Made by a program: the position numbers and the translations under genes
Notes under the pieces: generated by a model
The model's input: the letters and a program-made list of their open reading frames with translations, nothing else
The model's database searches: none
Told to the model about the DNA's origin: nothing
Virus record (IMG/VR): IMGVR_UViG_2617270939_000001
Length of the DNA: 12,103 bases
Direction: 5' to 3' (one strand)
Source: a virus
Taxonomy: Duplodnaviria > Heunggongvirae > Uroviricota > Caudoviricetes
Shown here: piece by piece, positions 1,341 through 11,836 of the stretch
Numbering within the stretch: position 1 is the first letter of the stretch
Layout of the letters: each line of letters starts with the position of its first letter

Positions 1341-1916
1341 CTACGGCAGTGCTGGCCATTCAATATCCTGTGCAGTTGACGTATCAACACGGTTCAGCAA
1401 TACCCGATACTTTTTCCATGCTTCCAGCAACGAGATTTCTTCCTCCGTTGCAATTTCCAGATCTGCAGCATCCTGAAGCGGCGCAATATGCTCACTGGCT
1501 ACCTGCATCAGGCTGTTTTTTGTTTCTTCCGCCTCCCGGATCCGGAACAGTTTTTCTGCTTCCGTATCCTTCACCCAGGCTGTGCCGTTCCACTTCTGAT
1601 ATTCCCCTCCCGGCGATAACCAGGTAACATTTTCCGGTAACGGACCGAGTTCAGAAATAAATAACGCGTCGCCGGAAGCCACGTCATAAACCGTTTTACC
1701 CCGATGATCTTCAACGAGATGCCACGATGCCTCATCACTGTTGAAAACAGCCACGAAGCCTGCCGGAATATCTGGCGGTGCAATATCGGTACTGTTTGCT
1801 GGCAGACCTGTATGAGGCGGAATATATGCGTCACCTTCACCAATAAATTCATTAGTTCCGGCCAGCAGATTATAAATTTTTATGGTCCGTGGTTGTTCAC
1901 TCATTCTGAATGCCAT
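1341..1916 (-). CDS. tfa: Tail fibre assembly protein (Tfa), 191 aa
   Basis: Its start codon (1914-1916) shares one base with the stf stop (1916-1918), TAATG on the coding strand. Protein is TfaQ/TfaR-like. Convergent with pin, as in Rac and Qin. Confidence 0.85.
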
Positions 1917-3904
1917 TATGCAAGCCTCACAATATAGTTAAATGCGATGTTTTTGACGGTGTTTTCCGCGTTACCAGCAGCGTTAACGGTGATGGTATGT
2001 CCATGTGAACCAATCGCAACGGAGTGCGTATGAGCACCAATACCGACAGTATGTGCGTGTGCACCTGCGCTTGCAGCAGTACCCGATACAGAGTGCGTAT
2101 GAGCGCCTGCAGAAGAAGTGTTAACACTGTATTTAGAATAATCAGGTGATCCACTTCCCGGAGCACCACTGGAACCACCTGAAACAAATGTCATCGAATG
2201 GGTATGTGCACCGGCTGAAGCAGCCGTACCGCTAACACTATGGGTATGCGCACCAGTGTTATTCGTGGATTTAGTGCCGTAATCAAACGACGATGTGGTT
2301 TTCGTCCCCAAATCCGTACTGGATACGCTGGCGCTGTGGGTGTGTGATTTAATGCCGTCCTGTTCCTGAGACAATACGGCTCGATCACTGGCGGGCTTGC
2401 CCTTAATCGTCCAGCCACGCATATCAGGGATCACGCCTGACGGATAAGCGGCTGCAAGTTTCGGGTAAGCAGATTTGTCAAAAGTCTGCCCCTGCATCAG
2501 GGCATAACCAGACGGAACGGTATCTGATGGCCACGGGATTGGTGCGCCGACTGGATAAAACTCTGCAGGAGGATGAGCCGAGGTGTAAAGCTGCGCCCAC
2601 GGCGACCAGTTTGCGTCGGTCGTATCCCGTCGTGAACGAATAAATGCCGGAGCATGATCGCCGCTGGTTCCACTCCAGCCAATAAGTAACTCACCCTCTC
2701 CTACTGCGGTTACACCAGTGAGATGAAGCACATTACCATAGGTTGTTGGGTAGCCATTGTTGTATGCCTCATACATCTGAATGCCTGGTGTACCCTTTGC
2801 GCTCCCACTTAATGCCGTAACACGGTTTCTGGATACTAACGTATTAATATTTATATCGCTGGAACCATCAAATTTAACTCCATTTATATTTATCGCATTT
2901 TGTAACTTGGTTGCTGTCAATGCGTTACCGTTCAGACTTGCGGACAGTTTGGTTCCAATAACCAGTTCGCCGGTTGCGTTATCAATAGCAAACGGTCTTA
3001 ATGTATTCCAGCCACCATAAACATCACCTTGATTGGTAAGCAGCAGGTAAGTTTTAGCGCCATCATTACGCCATAATGCACCATACTCCCCACCTATCAT
3101 TCGAATCTGATTACCACCACGCGCTACAATTTCGTCTGTGGCAAAAAGTTTTTTGCACGACAAGTTATCGTTAACGATTAACGAATGAGACTCATAAAAA
3201 CCACGCCCACTCTTAAAATCAAGGATAACGTCCGCCGCGATACATTCAGTCGCCGGATTTGTTGCCCCAAACTTATAGGTCGTATCATTAACAACGAGAT
3301 CAGCACCAGGTGCGGATATTGACAGGCCATCTTCGATAAACGCAAAAACAGGGAAAGCAGCGCCATCAACATAGAACACAGAGCGCAAATCATCGCCCTT
3401 ATTACTCATCATTATTGAGTGGATGGCTCGTTCATTGTTTTGATATTGCCAGAACATTCCATAAGCATAACGCCCCCTGTCAGTCCAGCCACCAGGCATA
3501 ACAAATCCGTTAAACTCGCAGTTATTCATCGGATCGCCTGCGGTTCGCGTTGCCGTGGTGATAATGACCCTTGATGCCAGTTCGCTTACTGAGCCAGCAG
3601 AACGCATAACAGCAACAGGGTAATATTTTCCAGATGTTGCACCTGCAGGAGCGTTAACCCGCACATAACGCATACCACGCTTATCAGCAAAGTCTGTTTT
3701 ACTGACCGCGTTAATGTTGTTCAGGAAGCGTCCCTTATCGGGTATATCAGCGCCGTTCTGGTCTTTCTGCAGACGTTTCTCTGCATTGTCATAGGCTGCT
3801 TTTACTGCCTTTGGCGTTGCCGCCAGCGTTTCAGACGTGCTGTTGGTCGCACTGCTGAGCTGTACTATCCCCTTTTTCGTCGTGCTCGCATCCTCAAGCG
3901 CCAC
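1916..3904 (-). CDS. stf: Side tail fibre protein (Stf), C-terminal portion only; the frame is open up to about 4294 but has no ATG, and homology to lambda Stf begins about 4230
   Basis: Translation matches the lambda Stf middle and C-terminus ([35 protein letters not shown] … [14 protein letters not shown] … [31 protein letters not shown]). Upstream in the same frame (3905-4230) is the Ala/Ser/Thr-rich repeat typical of Stf. The 3904 start in the ORF track is a GTG (Val in SAVALED), not a true start. Confidence 0.8.
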
Positions 3905-4665
3905 GGCGGATGCAATATCCTCTGCCCGTTTTGCTGCTGTCTCGGCGCGCGTTGCCGCGGATTCCGCCGTACTTTTGCTCTGAGCTGCCGCCGTCGCACT
4001 GCCAGCTGCCTCTGTCGCCTTCGTGGATGCCGTCGTGGCGCTGCCCTTCGCTGCTGACGCCTGTCTGGTCGCCTCATCTTTTGAAGCAGACGCCGATGAT
4101 GCCGATGACGCCGCCGAACTGGCGGACGATGCCGCTGCCGTTTTTGAGGATTCTGCACGGGTTTCCGACGCTTTCGCGTTCGTTTCGGATGTCTTCGCTG
4201 CGGAAGCTGACCTCGCTGCTGCACTGGCCTGTTTTCCAGTTCCGGAAAACGCCGCTGCACCGACAGGGGGATCCCGTCGAGAATACTGGCAATTTCACCT
4301 GCGATCCGCGACAGCACGAAAGTACAGAATGCGGTTTCCACCACTTCAGCGGAGTCTCTGGCATTTTTCAGCTCCTGTGCGTCGGCCTGCGCACGCGTAA
4401 GTCGATGGCGTTCGTACTCAATAGTCCCTGGCTGGAGATCTGTCTCGCTGGCCCGCCGCAGTTCTTCAACTTCCCGGCGCAGCTTTTCGTTCTCAATTTC
4501 AGCATCCCTTTCGGCATACCATCTTATAACGGCGGCAGAGTCATAAAGCACCTCATTACCCTTGCCACCGCCTCGCAGAACGGGCATTCCCTGTTCCTGC
4601 CAGTTCTGAATGGTACGGATACTCGCACCGAAAATGTCAGCCAGCTGCTTTTTGTTGACTTCCAT
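3865..4665 (-). CDS. nohA: Terminase small subunit Nu1 homologue (NohA-like): 146 N-terminal codons are Nu1, then about 120 codons of out-of-frame stf DNA (deletion fusion, probably non-functional)
   Basis: First 146 aa ([29 protein letters not shown]…[12 protein letters not shown]) are nearly identical to lambda Nu1, including the wHTH. After codon 146 (about 4230) the protein becomes an Arg/Pro/Gln-rich tail, which is the Ala-rich stf repeat DNA read in the wrong frame. Confidence 0.8.
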
Positions 4666-4900
4666 TGTTCATTCCACGGCCAAAAACAGAGAAAGGAAAC
4701 GACAGAGGCCCAAAAGTTCGTTTTCAGCACCTGTCGTTTCCTTTCTTTTCAGGGGGTATTTTAAATAAAAACATTAAGTTACGACGAAGAAGAACGGAAA
4801 CGCCTTAAACCGGAAAATTTTCATAAATAGCGAAAACCCGCGAGGTCGCCGCCCCGTAACCTGTCGGATCGCCGGAAAGGACCCGCAAAATGATAATAAT
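4666..4900 (-). other. Intact lambda-type cohesive-end site: cosB (between Nu1 start and cosN), cosN (4843-4854), cosQ side (about 4855-4895)
   Basis: The minus strand reads …CCGACAGGTTACG|GGGCGGCGACCTCGCGGGTTTTCGCTATTTATGAAAATTTTCCGGTTTAAGGCG…, which is the lambda right end joined to the lambda left end with the 12-nt cohesive sequence GGGCGGCGACCT, directly upstream of the Nu1 start (ATG 4665-4663). Confidence 0.85.
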
Positions 4901-5053
4901 TATCATCTACATGTCACAACGTGCATCTACGCCATCAAACCACGTCAAATAATCAATTATGACGCAGGTATCGTATTAATTGATCTGCATCAACTTAACG
5001 TAAAAACAACTTCAGACAATACAAATCAGCGACACTGAATACGGGACAACCTC

Positions 5054-5287
5054 ATGTCAACGAAGAACAGAACCCGCAGAACAACAACCCGCAACATCCG
5101 CTTTCCTAACCAAATGATTGAACAAATTAACATCGCTCTTGAGCAAAAAGGGTCCGGGAATTTCTCAGCCTGGGTCATTGAAGCCTGCCGCCGGAGACTG
5201 TGCTCAGAAAAAAGAGTTTCTTCTGAAGCAAACAAAGAAAAGAGTGACATTACTGAATTGCTCAGAAAACAGGTCAGACCAGATTGA
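5054..5287 (+). CDS. Small basic protein, 77 aa, predicted ribbon-helix-helix DNA-binding fold (YnfO-like by position)
   Basis: Basic N-terminus (KNRTRRTTTRN), then a beta-strand-like IRFPNQ and two helices (MIEQINIALEQ / FSAWVIEACRRRL), resembling Arc/MetJ/CopG-type RHH proteins. Lies between cos and ydfO, where ynfO sits in K-12 Qin. Confidence 0.6.
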   Translation: MSTKNRTRRTTTRNIRFPNQMIEQINIALEQKGSGNFSAWVIEACRRRLCSEKRVSSEANKEKSDITELLRKQVRPD

Positions 5288-5344
5288 AGCAATTTAGATA
5301 ATCGTGCAGACTACGCCCCCTCATATCACATGGAAGGTTTATCT

Positions 5345-5755
5345 ATGGATCAGGTAGTCATTTTTAAACAAATATTTGATAAAGTTCGAAACGATTTAAA
5401 CTATCAATGGTTTTATTCTGAGCTAAAACGTCACAATGTCTCACATTACATTTACTATTTAGCCACAGAGAATGTTCATATTGTATTAAAAAATGATAAT
5501 ACAGTGTTATTAAAGGGCCTAAAAAACATTGTGTCTGTCAAATTTTCAAAGGATAGGCATCTTATAGAAACGACCTCTAATAAGCTGAAATCCAGAGAGA
5601 TCACATTTCAGGAATACAGAAGAAACCTTGCTAAAGCAGGAGTTTTTCGGTGGGTTACAAATATCCACGAACAAAAAAGATATTACTATACCTTTGATAA
5701 TTCATTACTATTTACTGAAAGCATCCAGAAAACTACACAGATCTTACCACGCTAA
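5345..5755 (+). CDS. ydfO: DUF1398-family prophage protein YdfO-like, 136 aa (the ORF track begins at an upstream ATG, 5330)
   Basis: A GGAAGG Shine-Dalgarno lies 7 nt before ATG 5345. Sequence and length agree with K-12 YdfO as I recall it. Confidence 0.7.
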
Positions 5756-5857
5756 ACCATAACGTCCGGCTTCTCTCACTCCTGAGCCGGACTGCATTGG
5801 TTTAATAAAAACCATCAACAATTGTGATTTAGATATTCGGAACCATTCAAATATAAC

Positions 5858-5880
5858 AAAACCCCGTAAAAACGAGGTTT
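5858..5880. terminator. Candidate bidirectional rho-independent terminator between ydfO (+) and gnsB (-)
   Basis: Imperfect hairpin AAACCcCG-taaaaa-CGaGGTTT with T-rich flanks on both strands. Stem has a mismatch. Confidence 0.35.
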
Positions 5881-5906
5881 ATGGATAAATTTTATTATTG
5901 AATACA

Positions 5907-6080
5907 TCAGATTAAATTAATCTTGACATCATAGCTTTCAAGACCCGTCATTTTTTCCCGTGCGGTAAACTGAATACTGGTAACTTCTTTCCCGGTCTTT
6001 TTCTTAAGTTCAATAATTTTTTTTGTTATATATTCAGAAATATCTGCTTCTGCTTTTGTTTTTAAGTTTTCAATATTCAT
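5907..6080 (-). CDS. gnsB: GnsB, 57 aa; absent from the ORF track because it is under 60 aa
   Basis: Manual reverse-complement translation gives MNIENLKTKAEADISEYITKKIIELKKKTGKEVTSIQFTAREKMTGLESYDVKINLI, stop TGA at 5907-5909. AAGAGGAAATG precedes the start (tandem ATGs at 6083 and 6080). Confidence 0.8.
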   Translation of the reverse strand: MNIENLKTKAEADISEYITKKIIELKKKTGKEVTSIQFTAREKMTGLESYDVKINLI

Positions 6081-6251
6081 CATTTCCTCTTTTAGTCTGT
6101 TATGACTTTCCAGTTACACAGTAAGTCGATTATATGGTGCAAACGTGTAAAAGATAAGATGAAACATCGCAATAATCAACATACGATAGTCTAAATTTTA
6201 CACAAACAGACAAAGAGAATTTTCCTGAATTATCAATGCAATAGCATCAAA

Positions 6252-6482
6252 TCAACTCAAGAGCCTTATTGCTGCTTCCAGAATTTCTTCTGAAGTAACA
6301 TGTCGATCCGCGGCTACATAAATGACTTTATGATCTCCGGTCAGAGATGGAAACCCTGCGGCCATTACAGTAAGGTGTGTTTTTTCGCCATTTGGATATT
6401 CACGCATGATGGTGTTAACTCCAGTCATCGCTGGCACTACCACTGCTGGTTCAGAGTTAAAAAAAACTATGATTTTTTTCAT
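6252..6482 (-). CDS. Small hypothetical protein, 76 aa from MKKIIVFF (track ORF extends to a further upstream ATG at 6524); at the position of the cold-shock-induced ynfN in Qin
   Basis: Clean ORF in the AT-rich cargo block, same strand as the flanking gnsB and cspI. Start is ambiguous and the SD is weak. I do not recognise the sequence with confidence. Confidence 0.5.
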   Translation of the reverse strand: MKKIIVFFNSEPAVVVPAMTGVNTIMREYPNGEKTHLTVMAAGFPSLTGDHKVIYVAADRHVTSEEILEAAIRLLS

Positions 6483-6523
6483 GATGTTACCGTAGTATGT
6501 GAGTATCCATCGAATAGACACCA

Positions 6524-6560
6524 AGCAAAAAAGCTCCCGAAGGAGCCTTCATTTTCACTT
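6524..6560. terminator. Candidate terminator/attenuator hairpin between cspI and the downstream small ORF
   Basis: GCTCC-cgaa-GGAGC, a 5-bp GC stem with a GNRA-like loop, flanked by an A run (6524-6532) and T-rich sequence (6551-6565). Stem is short. Confidence 0.3.
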
Positions 6561-6753
6561 TTTTAAATCCAACGACAGACGGCTGGCATTTAAGTATTGT
6601 GAAATATTATCAAATGTAATCATCATTGATTTACAAAAGATACATTTTGCCCCGAAAGGATTCATGTCAGAAACATCAAAAGATGATGTTCTATACTGGG
6701 AACCATGACAACACGGGCATCTAAAGTGAATATGGTTTGTAATATTGTCTACC

Positions 6754-6966
6754 TCAAAGCGCCACTACATGAACAGCGGCAGGACCTTTAGGTCCGTTCT
6801 CAATACCAAATTCAACTTCCTGATTCTCAGTTAATGTTTTGAAATCGTTGCTCTGAATTGCTGAGAAATGGACAAACACATCTTTGCTGCCATCTTTCGG
6901 CGTGATGAAACCAAAACCTTTTTCAGGGTTAAACCATTTCACTAAACCAGTCATTTTGTTAGACAT
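6754..6966 (-). CDS. cspI: Cold-shock protein CspI (CspA family), 70 aa
   Basis: [70 protein letters not shown] carries RNP1 (KGFGFI) and RNP2 (VFVHF). Confidence 0.9.
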
Positions 6967-7098
6967 AATTATTACCTTTTGAAGAAATTAGCCCTTGGGC
7001 AGAATGGTCCGAAAAAAAATATCAGAGAGAAAAACCAACAAGGAAATCTCAAGAGGTACAAATAATAAAATTATAACAATGACTGCTTCAGATAAATT

Positions 7099-7146
7099 TG
7101 TAACAAACCAGAACACCATTAACGCATGATTAACCACCCATAGCAA
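7099..7146 (-). promoter_or_regulatory. Predicted cspI promoter (-35 TTGCTA 7146-7141, 17-bp spacer, -10 GTTAAT 7123-7118) and cold-box-like 5' UTR start (GGTTTGTTACA, 7109-7099)
   Basis: Same layout as the cspB promoter in this window, and similar to the cspA promoter (TTGCAT/CTTAAT) followed by a GGTTTGACGTACAGAC cold box, as I recall it. Predicted 5' UTR about 144 nt. Confidence 0.45.
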
Positions 7147-7328
7147 GGATTACTTTTGTAAAGAAAAACACAGCAATGAAAGAATAGCTTTATTTATTAA
7201 TAAAACGTGTCATTCTGATTAAGACCTTTTATCTTACCCTTAAGATTTCAGGAATTTTGGCTCATGGAAGAGTCCTTTTTATTTAAATTTTACATTCCGC
7301 GATGTAAATGTTCCGATTTAATATTACC

Positions 7329-8662
<1,334 letters not shown>

Positions 8663-8666
8663 TGGA

Positions 8667-8882
8667 TTATTCTCCTCTCGCAGCCTTACGCCTGTCTTCT
8701 TTAATCTTGAAATAAAGATTTGTCAGATACGTCAGCAGGCCAAAAACCAGGCTACCCAGCACACCGATTGCAGCCCACTGTGACGGAGTTACTTTATCGA
8801 GTAACTGCAATGCCCAGAAACCAGCATTACCCGCCGATGTGCCATAGGCAACACCTGTTGTTAACTTATCCATTGATTTCAT
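8667..8882 (-). CDS. essQ: Class II holin / pinholin, phage 21 S-like, 71 aa, with dual-start motif MKSM
   Basis: [71 protein letters not shown] has two TM segments and is very similar to S21 as I recall it. GGTGAGGAT SD before ATG 8882. The track ORF's 25-codon upstream extension is not supported. Confidence 0.85.
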
Positions 8883-9101
8883 ATCCTCACCCCGATGTAC
8901 ACGGATGGTGCAATATGTTTGAAAAGATCGGAGTCTACGGGGTAGTTTTGACAGCACACGTTGTTCTCAACGGCGCTAAAAAAACATACACATTAAAAAT
9001 GTGGGTAATTATTTTGAAAGAAAGTCATATATAAAATAATAATACGAGAAATGTTTTCATATTTAGTGTACTGTATACGGCCATTTATACAGGAAAAGCC
9101 T

Positions 9102-9272
9102 ATGTCAGAACGTAAAGACTCAAAATCACGCCGTAATTATCTCGTTAAATGTTCCTGCCCAAACTGCACCCAAGAGTCAGAACACAGTTTTTCAAGAGTA
9201 CAGAAAGGTGCCCTTTTGATCTGCCCTCATTGCAACAAAGTATTCCAGACAAATCTTAAAGCTGTAGCCTGA
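9102..9272 (+). CDS. Small zinc-ribbon protein, 56 aa, of the kind described as YnfQ/YmcF-type small proteins next to csp genes
   Basis: AGGAAAA SD before ATG 9102. Two CxxC pairs (CSCPNC … CPHC). Antisense to the late lysis operon. The upstream part of the track ORF (from 9051) lacks an SD. Confidence 0.6.
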   Translation: MSERKDSKSRRNYLVKCSCPNCTQESEHSFSRVQKGALLICPHCNKVFQTNLKAVA

Positions 9273-9327
9273 TTGATTTTATTAGTAACAAGTATTTTTT
9301 ATATTTTAATAATATATTTAAAGCAGA

Positions 9328-9354
9328 TAATAAAAAACCCGCCTGAGCGGGTTT
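9328..9354 (-). terminator. Rho-independent terminator acting on the minus strand (downstream of cspB)
   Basis: Perfect 8-bp stem AAACCCGC-ctga-GCGGGTTT (9335-9354), followed on the minus-strand transcript by a U run (plus-strand A run 9328-9337). Confidence 0.7.
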
Positions 9355-9635
9355 GAGATTGTGGTGCTTTTTGTGGGAGTCATCCACTTACGCACTTTGT
9401 TTTGCGATGCCAGCAGTTAGCTTCTGCTGTGAAACTATTCATGCAGCAAACCTGCACTTCACCACAATGGTTAGCATACTTTTCCTGATTAAGATTTTGC
9501 CAAATATGCTGGCCATTGTTTCATGTATTGGACCTCCTTACTTTTTATTAAAGAGATCCAATATTCACTACTCTGTCCGTATCTCTACTCAGGCATCAGC
9601 CTTCTTCGTTATCGTATACAGACGAGCGATGAATT

Positions 9636-9851
9636 TTAATCAGTAATGATGACATTTGCTGCTGCAGGACCTTTAGCACCACTCTCTATAGAGAAGGTAA
9701 CCTTTTGACCTTCAAATAAGGTTCGATAATTATCATTCTGAATCGCAGAAAAATGCACAAACACATCTTTACTACCATCAACAGGAGAAATAAAGCCGAA
9801 ACCTTTATCAGCGTTAAACCATTTTACTAAACCAGTCATTTTATTTGACAT
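9636..9851 (-). CDS. cspB: Cold-shock protein CspB (CspA family), 71 aa
   Basis: [67 protein letters not shown]… with RNP1 and RNP2 motifs. AAGGAA SD. Confidence 0.9.
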
Positions 9852-9993
9852 TCTACATTCCTTAACTTGAGCCTTTCGGCATAAATGGTTTGCATAACAG
9901 AAACGACTTCGTACTTAATTGGAGAGACTCAAAGAAGGAATAAGTGAATAACACCTGAAATGAGAACTGCTTTAGTAAACTACTTCGTATATC

Positions 9994-10047
9994 GTCTGTT
10001 CTTCAAACCGACGCAGTCATTAACTCATAGTTGAACATATGAAGCAA
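9994..10047 (-). promoter_or_regulatory. Predicted cspB promoter (-35 TTGCTT 10047-10042, 17-bp spacer, -10 GTTAAT 10024-10019) and cold box at the 5' UTR start (CGGTTTGAAGAACAGAC, about 10010-9994)
   Basis: Minus strand reads TTGCTT-n17-GTTAAT-gactgcgt-CGGTTTGAAGAACAGACGA…AAAGCAG, closely paralleling the cspA promoter and cold box as I recall them. Predicted 5' UTR about 159 nt (10010 to 9852). Confidence 0.55.
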
Positions 10048-10149
10048 TGTTTATTTTAGACATCCAGCCACCTTCAACCCTATCAAAAAAGTAGTTTTCT
10101 CCAGGAACGTGTGTATGGTGCACCAGGTTATCAGTATTAAGGAGTTTTT

Positions 10150-10358
10150 CTGTCCCCTAAAATGACAGGAATTGTCAAAAACTTTGACTACAAAAGCAGC
10201 AAAGGTCTTATATTCCCATCCGATGGCGTATCGATGCCCAGCTTCACGTTTCAGCTCTCAATCTTCGAGATGCAGAAGAAATTACCACAGGATTACGCGT
10301 GGAATTTTGCCGGATAAATGGTTCGCATGGACCTTCAACTGCCAATGTTTATCCCGGG
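10150..10358 (+). pseudogene. cspF: cspF-like cold-shock gene remnant: start codon position is CTG, one frameshift, and no stop at the expected end
   Basis: TAAGGAG SD (10138-10144) sits 5 nt before CTG 10150, where ATG is expected. Frame 1 from ATG 10162 gives [22 protein letters not shown], then homology resumes in another frame (…[12 protein letters not shown]…[21 protein letters not shown]) after a one-base loss near 10227. That frame runs on through the terminator. Confidence 0.6.
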
Positions 10359-10395
10359 ATGAGATTCAATATCTCTATTGCCCCATTTAAAGCAC

Positions 10396-10430
10396 AAAAA
10401 CCCGCTTATAAGCGGGTTTTCTACTTTTTT
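10396..10430. terminator. Strong bidirectional rho-independent terminator; candidate tR' of the Q-dependent late transcript
   Basis: Perfect 9-bp stem AAACCCGCT-tata-AGCGGGTTT (10398-10419) with an A run before and a T run after, so U tracts follow the hairpin on both strands. About 110 nt downstream of the Q stop on the minus strand. Confidence 0.75.
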
Positions 10431-10526
10431 CTAAACGTCGGATACACAAAGCCCATCGTTGAGAAAATCTTATCCATGTTTTTTGAAAAATGCAAACATC
10501 ATGTCGCCATCTTCAGCAAAAATCAT

Positions 10527-11279
10527 TTATCTCGTCACCTTCCTCAATTGCGCTTCCGCGTATGCTTCTTCCTGCCAGCACTTTGTTACCAGTTTACCAA
10601 TGACGTCCGCATACCCCTTATACCACTGATAATCGGTCAGGTCTGGTACCAGCTTCTGGACATGACGTCGTGCCAGCGTGGTCGGTAAACGACTAAACCG
10701 GTTTCCATTACAACGCCCACAAATCTTATATACCGGTACGCCATGAAACCGGGTTCTTTTTTCATCCAGAACAATCCCTTTACCCTTACACCCCCTGCAC
10801 GCTGTGCTGACTTCGCCCTTACCATGGCAATGCTGACATAGTTCCTTCACCCATTCTTCCTTGATTACAGATTCCCCGCGTCTGTAGTGTTTCACCACTT
10901 CGCGCAATACATTATAAAATCCCGTACCTGAACAATGCTCACAGCGAGCCTTACTTGCCGCAGACCTGGAGTAATCAGCAAAGGCAAAATTCACAAGGTA
11001 AGGAATAATCTGTAACCGGATTTCTTCACTCAATTTGTTCAATGTCGGGTTATCCAGTGCCATCGCGTAATTTAGCAGGCCTTCAATCGCAAACTGAGGG
11101 TCCTGAACACCAACTTTTGCCAGAAATAAGGCCAACCCAAGTGGTGCTTTCGACTGCACCATCCCCTGCGCTGCCATTACATCCGTAATTGTTAAACAAC
11201 CGGTGCCTGTCGCTGGAGCGTCATCGCTCAATTTTGGAGATTTTGGGGAGTAATATTTTGGTAAGGCTTCAAGGTTCAT
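10527..11279 (-). CDS. quuQ: Late-gene antiterminator Q, 250 aa from [10 protein letters not shown] (the track ORF's 65-codon N-terminal extension overlaps the upstream gene and is rejected)
   Basis: GGAGAA SD before ATG 11279. Four Cys pairs ([30 protein letters not shown]), a zinc-binding pattern. Sequence and length agree with K-12 QuuQ/QuuD-type Q proteins as I recall them. Confidence 0.8.
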
Positions 11280-11292
11280 GCTCGTTCTCCAC

Positions 11293-11836
11293 TTACGCCA
11301 GTACGCCAGTTGCCAGCGCGCGATCGATAAAACGAAATACCAGCTCCAGTTGGGAGCCATACTTCTCTTCAAATGCCACTGTATCCGTATGCAGCTCGTT
11401 GTGATGCTTTCTGCACAAAGGCAACACAAAGAGATCATGTGCTTTTGTTCCCATTCCGCCCTGCCCGTGACCAATCAGATGATGCGGATCGTCGGCTGGC
11501 ATACCGCAGCAAGCACACGGCTGTGTCTTAACCCAACGTGTGTATTTCTCCTTAACCCAGCGGCGACGTTTAGGCAGCTTCATGAAAGATTCCGGAGACT
11601 CTGGATCAACGGTGATGATTACCACCGTCTTTTCCTGTGGTGGTTTTTGTTGCTGGTGGGCGTAAGGCAACGGTGCAAGATTTTTTGTGCGTTGTTTCAA
11701 TATGCTGGTGGCGGTCTGCTCTCCCGGTACGATGTCGCTTTCGCGGTACACCGAGCAGATTTTTTCCGCTGGTAATCCCAGCGAACGACGCGATACAGCC
11801 TCAGGTAGTGCATCCACCTGAATCGCCACGGATAAT
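11293..11836 (-). pseudogene. ydfU: YdfU-like (DUF968) gene, C-terminal part only; N-terminus replaced by an IS3-family insertion
   Basis: C-terminal region carries an HNH-like Cys/His motif (PCACCGMPADDPHHLIGHGQGGMGTKAHDLFVLPLCRKHHNELH) and ends 13 nt before the Q start. Upstream, the same DNA in another frame encodes the end of the transposase, so the first about 40 codons of the track ORF are IS-derived. Exact junction not determined. Confidence 0.55.

Follow-up and report, generated by a model that had tools for sequence, protein, structure and literature searches.

The window, the whole 12,103-nucleotide stretch of DNA analysed here, matches the chromosome of E. coli VREC0864 (NZ_LR536431.1) at 99.9% identity, at a locus between ydfJ and rspB. 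The source-genome annotation shows a lambdoid remnant adjoining a truncated ydfJ. Its gene order opens with IS5, pinQ, tfaQ, a gene labelled 'phage tail protein', a DNA-packaging pseudogene, ynfO, ydfO, gnsB and ynfN, and continues through cspI, rzpQ, rrrQ, essD, cspB, cspF', ydfT (Q) and a partial DUF968 gene; beyond the latter lie copies of IS3 and IS30, and then rspB. Both the position of the remnant on the ydfJ side and the order pinQ-tfaQ-stfQ-nohA-ynfO-ydfO-gnsB-cspI-rzpQ-rrrQ-ess-cspB-ydfT are those of Qin. Indeed, the Qin prophage of K-12 MG1655 aligns with the window in three colinear blocks of 98.4-99.0% identity, with 99.0% over 6.1 kb in the region that contains cos (window 4231-10351). 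Gene order and identity identify the window as the copy of the cryptic prophage Qin in E. coli VREC0864.

This copy of Qin is only ~17.5 kb long. It carries an IS5 copy between ydfK and pinQ, and the IS3 and IS30 copies stand in place of the ydfU-distal half of the prophage (rem, hokD, relBE, dicA, dicB and intQ in K-12). The immunity, replication and int half of Qin, represented in K-12 by dicA, dicB, relBE and intQ, is absent in VREC0864, and the source-genome annotation contains no integrase, excisionase or replication module within the remnant. Nor does it list any remaining terminase large subunit, capsid or tail-shaft gene there, in agreement with a preliminary description of this DNA according to which the element encodes neither its own large subunit nor a capsid. 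That description went on to state that all head and tail genes had been lost; this holds for the head and tail-shaft genes, but a truncated stf and tfaQ remain. Three Rfam matches in the window scored above the gathering score: an IS009 RNA inside tfaQ (1375-1573, minus strand, 221 bits) and, preceding cspI and cspB, two thermoregulator leaders of the cspA type (6727-7112 and 9620-10012, both on the minus strand). The cspI and cspB regions form a 200-nt direct repeat of 73% identity.

The features around cos, in window coordinates, are as follows.

1916-4230 (annotated ORF 1916-3904), minus strand: truncated side-tail-fibre gene, with Pfam tail-fibre domains.
3865-4230, minus strand: out-of-frame continuation of the nohA' ORF through stf DNA, a tail of 120 aa with 51 Arg/Lys.
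4229-4231, no strand assigned: deletion junction joining Nu1 codon ~146 to stf codon ~348 at an AAC microhomology (3 bp).
4231-4665, minus strand: nohA', corresponding to Nu1 (TerS) residues 1-146 and adjoining cos.
4231-5216, minus strand: whole lambda-homologous block, 96.8% identical over 987 bp to lambda from 48141 through cos to 625.
4690-4705, minus strand: cosB R1, 16/16 identical to lambda 151-166.
4731-4746, minus strand: cosB R2, in the opposite orientation to R3 and R1, 16/16 identical to lambda 109-124.
4747-4789, minus strand: R3-R2 interval carrying the predicted IHF site I1, unchanged in length, with two changes, lambda A73G and T102C.
4790-4805, minus strand: cosB R3, the critical TerS-binding site (lambda bp 50-65), 16/16 identical, contact segment bp 55-63 included.
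4806-4840, minus strand: cosN-R3 spacer (I2 region), 35/35 identical to lambda.
4841-4856, minus strand: cosN, the nicking site (12 nt and two flanking bp on each side), 16/16 identical to lambda.
4843-4854, minus strand: 12-nt cohesive end GGGCGGCGACCT, within cosN.
4878-4884, minus strand: cosQ, GGGTCCT, the packaging-termination subsite, 7/7 identical to lambda 48473-48479.

The interval from cosQ to cosB was aligned base by base with the corresponding sequences of lambda, lambda DE3, K-12 Qin, K-12 DLP12, PhiR34_1, 2H10, Kati and PhiR42_1, and the coordinates of the subsites were confirmed by extracting their sequence from the window. For cosQ we used the lambda coordinate 48473-48479, reportedly given by Wieczorek & Feiss 2001, and the sequence at that place agrees with it. 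Conservation of the 7-bp cosQ is high (PMC4669245). R3 occupies bp 50-65 of lambda and is contacted at bp 55-63, and the spacing of cosN and cosB is important (Murialdo & Feiss 2022, PMC9026076); R2 and R1 were located through the 16-bp sequence that, according to the same source, is common to both sites. The inverted pair R1/R2 was also recovered independently by a repeat search.

The preliminary description had held cosN and the cosB and cosQ sides to be intact, and the alignment bears this out. Point differences from lambda were looked for in cosN and the three R elements and none was present, leaving the two changes in the I1 interval as the only ones between R3 and R2. The distance from cosQ to cosN is that of lambda and, since the spacer between cosN and R3 is identical at all of its 35 positions, the critical distance between cosN and cosB is unchanged too. 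This cosN is the only exact one in the window, and also the only one in 83 kb of the source chromosome. Among the elements that define a lambda-type cos by sequence, cosN, cosQ, R3 at its proper spacing from cosN, the inverted R2, and R1 are present; on this evidence the region 4666-4900, minus strand, is confirmed as a complete lambda-type cos, and its match to that of lambda is far beyond chance.

Within 4666-4900 the window differs from lambda at about ten places (48459, 48467, 48471, 48486, 73, 102, 134, 138/139, 145 and 176). None of these falls in a defined subsite; all are in spacers, a placement with a chance of ~0.02 under a uniform model (hypergeometric). A73G, which adjoins the apparent core of the predicted IHF site I1, and T102C are both also found in PhiR34_1, 2H10 and PhiR42_1. 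The difference at 138/139 consists of one substitution and a 1-bp deletion relative to the reference, the deletion being common to all the other sequences compared, lambda DE3 included. The substitution, a G>A at lambda ~138/139 between R2 and R1, is absent from the compared phages and present in the Qin prophage of E. coli 1303. All of the ~10 differences thus recur in PhiR34_1, 2H10, Kati or PhiR42_1, or in other copies of Qin.

These differences bear on whether the site could be dead, that is, whether spacer changes, or a chromosomal context in which cos is present in single copy and not on replicating concatemers, block terminase and leave only decaying DNA. The departures from lambda, and the one variant absent from the compared phages, would fit such decay. 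However, nine of the spacer variants also occur in phage genomes that have been deposited, the window and PhiR42_1 disagree at just 2 of the 235 positions of the cos interval, and the critical elements and their spacing are unchanged. Prophage and plasmid-borne cos sites are, moreover, cut by terminase in vivo, as in cosmids and docL. A dead cos is therefore very unlikely indeed.

The site is adjoined by nohA', which Pfam Phage_Nu1 matches over residues 1-148 (E = 2e-90). Over residues 1-146 it differs from lambda Nu1 by four conservative substitutions (K48R, Q71R, A75T and L132I). Residues 1-47 are identical to lambda and cover the recognition helix (17-24) and the wing (31-39), so that the N-terminal winged-HTH DNA-binding domain of TerS is present in sequence, consistent with the intact Nu1 N-terminus noted in the preliminary description. 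The homology ends at residue 146, and the C-terminal TerL-binding segment, comprising the last ~30-40 residues, is missing, so that nohA' does not qualify as a functional TerS. Given the domain roles assigned to Nu1/TerS, nohA' is predicted to keep the parts for DNA binding and self-association without the segment that binds TerL; TerS is a poor binder of TerL once its last 30 residues are removed (PMC9026076). RefSeq records the gene as a pseudogene missing its C-terminus.

Beyond residue 146 the open frame passes into DNA that matches the interior of phage side-tail-fibre genes (3865-4230). The resulting 120-codon tail, with its 51 Arg/Lys, would place a highly basic extension on a DNA-binding domain and is probably non-functional. 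The truncated stf itself is 97-98% identical to the stf genes of 2H10, mEp332 and PhiR34_1. A 284-aa ORF on the plus strand (3910-4764), antisense to nohA', was treated as spurious.

The junction between Nu1 and stf was placed by a three-way alignment with the Nu1 and stf genes of PhiR34_1. Relative to that phage ~20.2 kb is missing (19,774 to 39,937), comprising the 3' end of Nu1, A, all head and tail-shaft genes, lom and the first ~347 codons of stf. The same junction was found in just one of 5,426 complete E. coli genomes, and the deletion is a private and presumably recent event. Other lineages carry different nested deletions at the Qin locus and have kept more of the prophage: E. coli 1303 has a full-length nohA, a partial gpA, a partial capsid gene, FI/FII and a full stf. 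The deletion of the window ends at lambda bp 625, that of K-12 Qin at 719 and that of DLP12 at 1018. These left ends of independent deletions cluster within ~1 kb to the right of cos, with right ends in stf or tfa; chance, selection against terminase, or a mechanism are candidate explanations for the clustering, and E. coli 1303 represents an intermediate state.

A likely picture of the ancestor is provided by PhiR42_1 (PV340562, 48.7 kb), which is 99.0% identical to window 4231-11800 at 100% coverage. The shared block runs Q-holin-lysozyme-cspB/cspI-gnsB-ydfO-ynfO-cos-Nu1, and with the same cold-shock and gnsB morons this phage is in effect a complete relative of Qin. We envisage that a PhiR42_1-like lambdoid phage integrated beside ydfJ, and that a single illegitimate deletion of ~20 kb in the lineage of this isolate would then have removed everything from Nu1 codon ~147 through stf codon ~347. 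Cos was spared because it lies upstream of the left end of the deletion. Moreover, since the deletion is private and the flanking 7.6 kb still shares 99.0% identity with the genome of a deposited phage, no decay of cos is yet to be expected. An intact cos is what the recent truncation of a PhiR42_1-like prophage predicts, and no selective explanation is needed. We considered whether the restriction of substitutions to spacers might reflect selection in situ, and rejected this in view of the two differences in 235 positions from PhiR42_1 and the private deletion; the pattern reflects constraint during the live-phage past of the lineage. A sequence-perfect cos in a gutted prophage is thus the default result of a recent deletion and indicates neither selection nor satellite biology.

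The history of the deletion also bears on the idea that cos and NohA' have been kept by selection as an anti-phage device, with NohA' occupying incoming cosB or cos titrating terminase, in either case lowering the burst. Nu1 residues 1-146 are intact, with the recognition helix and wing of lambda, and their product would be expected to bind TerL poorly; furthermore, three independent deletions (those of the window, K-12 Qin and DLP12) spare cos and 5' Nu1. But any deletion of the structural genes downstream of cos would spare cos, and a junction private to one genome has had no test by selection yet. The ORF runs out of frame for 120 aa, its annotation is that of a pseudogene, a full-length nohA persists in other lineages, and a literature search on the function of nohA and nohD yielded no expression, phenotype or functional data. 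We regard selection for such a device as scarcely credible.

If cos is an authentic relic, what would follow were it cut? In lambda, initiation of packaging requires cosN and cosB, and termination requires a downstream cosQ and cosN (PMC4669245; PMC9026076). Lambda terminase remains on the end that contains cosB and translocates from it (PMC4669245), so that packaging from the Qin cos would start at cosN and proceed by way of cosB and nohA' to stf, tfa and pin, with decreasing coordinates. This is the direction given in the preliminary description, and it agrees with the lambda mechanism. Because all of the subsites recognised by terminase are identical to those of lambda, a terminase of lambda specificity supplied in trans should recognise the site, and it is plausible that a terminase with the specificity of lambda or phi80 could cut it in trans. 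The terminase had been proposed to come from a superinfecting or a co-resident phage. As to the latter, a single place in the source genome matches window 4000-5300, which leaves no co-resident lambda-type Nu1/cos. A superinfecting phage of this specificity (lambda, phi80 or a PhiR42_1-like phage) would bind cosB via its own TerS, and its terminase would then nick cosN and translocate toward nohA'-stf-tfa-pin and the host genes beyond.

The 64 kb downstream in this direction carries ydfJ, dcp, dgcZ, the mar operon and the lsr operon. Past the remnant, the first DNA encountered holds dcp, dgcZ, mgtS, eamA, marRAB (~20 kb from cos) and the lsr operon, and more than ~50 kb downstream of cos there is an island with integrases and restriction or nucleotidyltransferase-type genes. 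In all, 83 kb of the source chromosome was joined and searched for cosN and for the composite of cosQ and cosN. The only composite found was the Qin cos itself, and the 64 kb downstream held no second cosQ and cosN that was correctly oriented. Three 12-mers within two mismatches of cosN, at +37.8, +39.7 and +47.2 kb, are without cosQ, and none has one mismatch or fewer; we treated them as chance matches.

These observations weigh against the proposal, developed from the preliminary description, that the chromosomal cos acts like that of a cos-type satellite, with helper terminase packaging nohA', stf, tfa, pin and host genes such as the mar operon into infectious transducing particles. The cos is indeed sequence-perfect and oriented for packaging toward pin, lambda and phi80 transfer natural cos-bearing islands (PMC6092414), and a defective lambdoid prophage has been reported to be packaged, most likely by the terminase of another prophage (PMC2669165). 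However, satellites and the prophage concerned, Sp4, excise and/or amplify, such that cos flanks a packageable unit, whereas the remnant lacks int, xis and replication functions. Termination would need a cosQ and cosN of which the next 64 kb holds none, and the host genome has no second lambda-type Nu1/cos. The analogy with satellites breaks down, and satellite-like packaging is consequently very unlikely.

With neither excision nor replication, and with no second cosQ and cosN in the next 64 kb, packaging cannot terminate correctly. One expected product of cleavage would be a chromosomal double-strand break that stimulates recombination and marker exchange with the infecting phage. The other would be dead-end filled heads of the docL type; efficient transducing particles are not expected. 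Work by Sternberg and Weisberg in 1975 and by Sternberg in 1986 reportedly found that packaging from a lone chromosomal cos gives docL-type particles, which are normally non-infectious. Recombination with incoming lambdoid phages stimulated by cos, together with dead-end packaging, is likelier than satellite-like transfer and, in our analysis, recombination appears to be the better-supported consequence of the two. A decoy function of NohA' and/or the chromosomal cos against lambda-specificity phages, or low-level unidirectional 'lateral' packaging of the pin-ydfJ-mar side by cos phages, is a very long shot; if true, the part that cos phages play in moving host genes or in defence, now thought minor, would be a larger one. 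In our judgement it is highly probable that this is an authentic Qin cos, a passive relic with every sequence feature of a working lambda-type cos, from which cleavage in trans and its consequences would follow as set out above.

Variation among copies of Qin gives some indication of past exchange at this point. Immediately to the left of cosN (window 4855-4930) two haplotypes are found, a lambda type, carried by K-12 Qin and E. coli 1303, and a DLP12/2H10 type. The window agrees with DLP12, 2H10, Kati and PhiR42_1 at nine variant sites left of cosN (48427-48486), and K-12 Qin is identical to lambda over 389 bp, from 48167 to bp 53. On the cosB side one haplotype is common to all Qin copies, so that the switch falls at cosN; it looks like a recombination breakpoint and would fit recombination at cos. 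It could also be an inherited polymorphism instead of the product of recombination in situ. We considered that the lambda tract of K-12 Qin might have been gained from K-12's own lambda prophage, and set this aside: since E. coli 1303 shares the haplotype, the polymorphism is segregating and not specific to K-12.

Recombination at such a site has a precedent in DLP12, whose homology block with cos recombines with lambda ~100-fold above the blocks of Qin or Rac, 10 of 19 junctions between lambda and DLP12 lying next to cos (PMC3945230). The DLP12 nu1 is functional in lambda (PMC3945230; PMC545071). Relic cos/noh blocks are thus plausible recombination hot spots with incoming lambdoid phages, as described for DLP12 (PMC3945230). 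They are also very common: a match to the cos/noh block was found in 4,945 of 5,426 complete E. coli genomes, with a median of three places per genome.

The occurrence of cos next to noh genes in the cryptic prophages of K-12 is long established. Lambda qin hybrids described by Espion and co-workers in 1983 are said to point to a Qin cos beside noh, and for Qin the arrangement follows from the K-12 sequence. For DLP12, cos beside a Nu1 homologue (a noh gene) is documented (PMC3945230; PMC545071). Both the packaging of defective lambdoid prophages in trans and the lambda-mediated transfer of cos islands are already published (PMC2669165; PMC6092414). The Qin cos is genuine and lies where the preliminary description placed it; it is of a kind already known, and beyond annotation its significance is small.

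The remnant can be compared with several known systems. The machinery of lambda or phi80 packages cos-type satellites such as the EcCICFT073 PICI and SaPIbov5, which possess a cosN of the helper type; these elements excise, and their replication yields concatemers in which cos sites lie one unit apart (PMC6092414). The window shares the helper-type cos, but satellites have int, regulatory and replication modules, and the remnant has none, so that neither integrase-mediated excision nor replication with repeated cos is available to it. EcCICFT073 also has a different cosB, with Rpp redirecting TerS (PMC9026076), whereas the window has the canonical lambda cosB. The defective prophage Sp4 of E. 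coli O157 Sakai most likely owes its packaging to the terminase of Sp14, the cos sites of the two being nearly identical (PMC2669165). It resembles the window in lacking a working terminase and in having a cos that matches the one in a possible terminase donor. However, Sp4 has almost its full size, its integrase excises it, and the replication of a neighbouring prophage amplifies it, none of which is possible for the remnant. PhiR42_1, PhiR34_1, Tritos, 2H10 and Kati, unlike the window, are complete genomes of 44-49 kb with terminase, head and tail genes.

Phage lambda itself shares with the window all cos subsites, the spacing of cosN and R3, and the helix and wing of TerS. The window differs in its ~10 spacer changes, in encoding no large subunit, and in having its cos as a single chromosomal copy that is not concatemeric. 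DLP12 of K-12 likewise has a lambda-type cos beside a Nu1 homologue (nohD) and a gene of the ylcI/ynfO family, has lost its head and tail genes, and carries the same haplotype left of cosN; in contrast to the window it lies at a different locus, has a full-length Nu1 with a deletion starting in gene A (lambda 1018), and shows R3 C53T and I1 T85A. K-12 MG1655 Qin keeps the dicA, dicB, relBE and int half that VREC0864 lacks; its deletion ends at lambda 719 and leaves a 320-aa stfQ, as compared with lambda 625 and a longer stf in the window, and it has R3 G54A together with the lambda-type left haplotype, where the window R3 is that of lambda. Nevertheless, K-12 Qin (b1548 region) and the window share the same locus, the same gene order pinQ-tfaQ-stfQ-nohA-cos-ynfO-ydfO-gnsB and the same haplotype on the cosB side.
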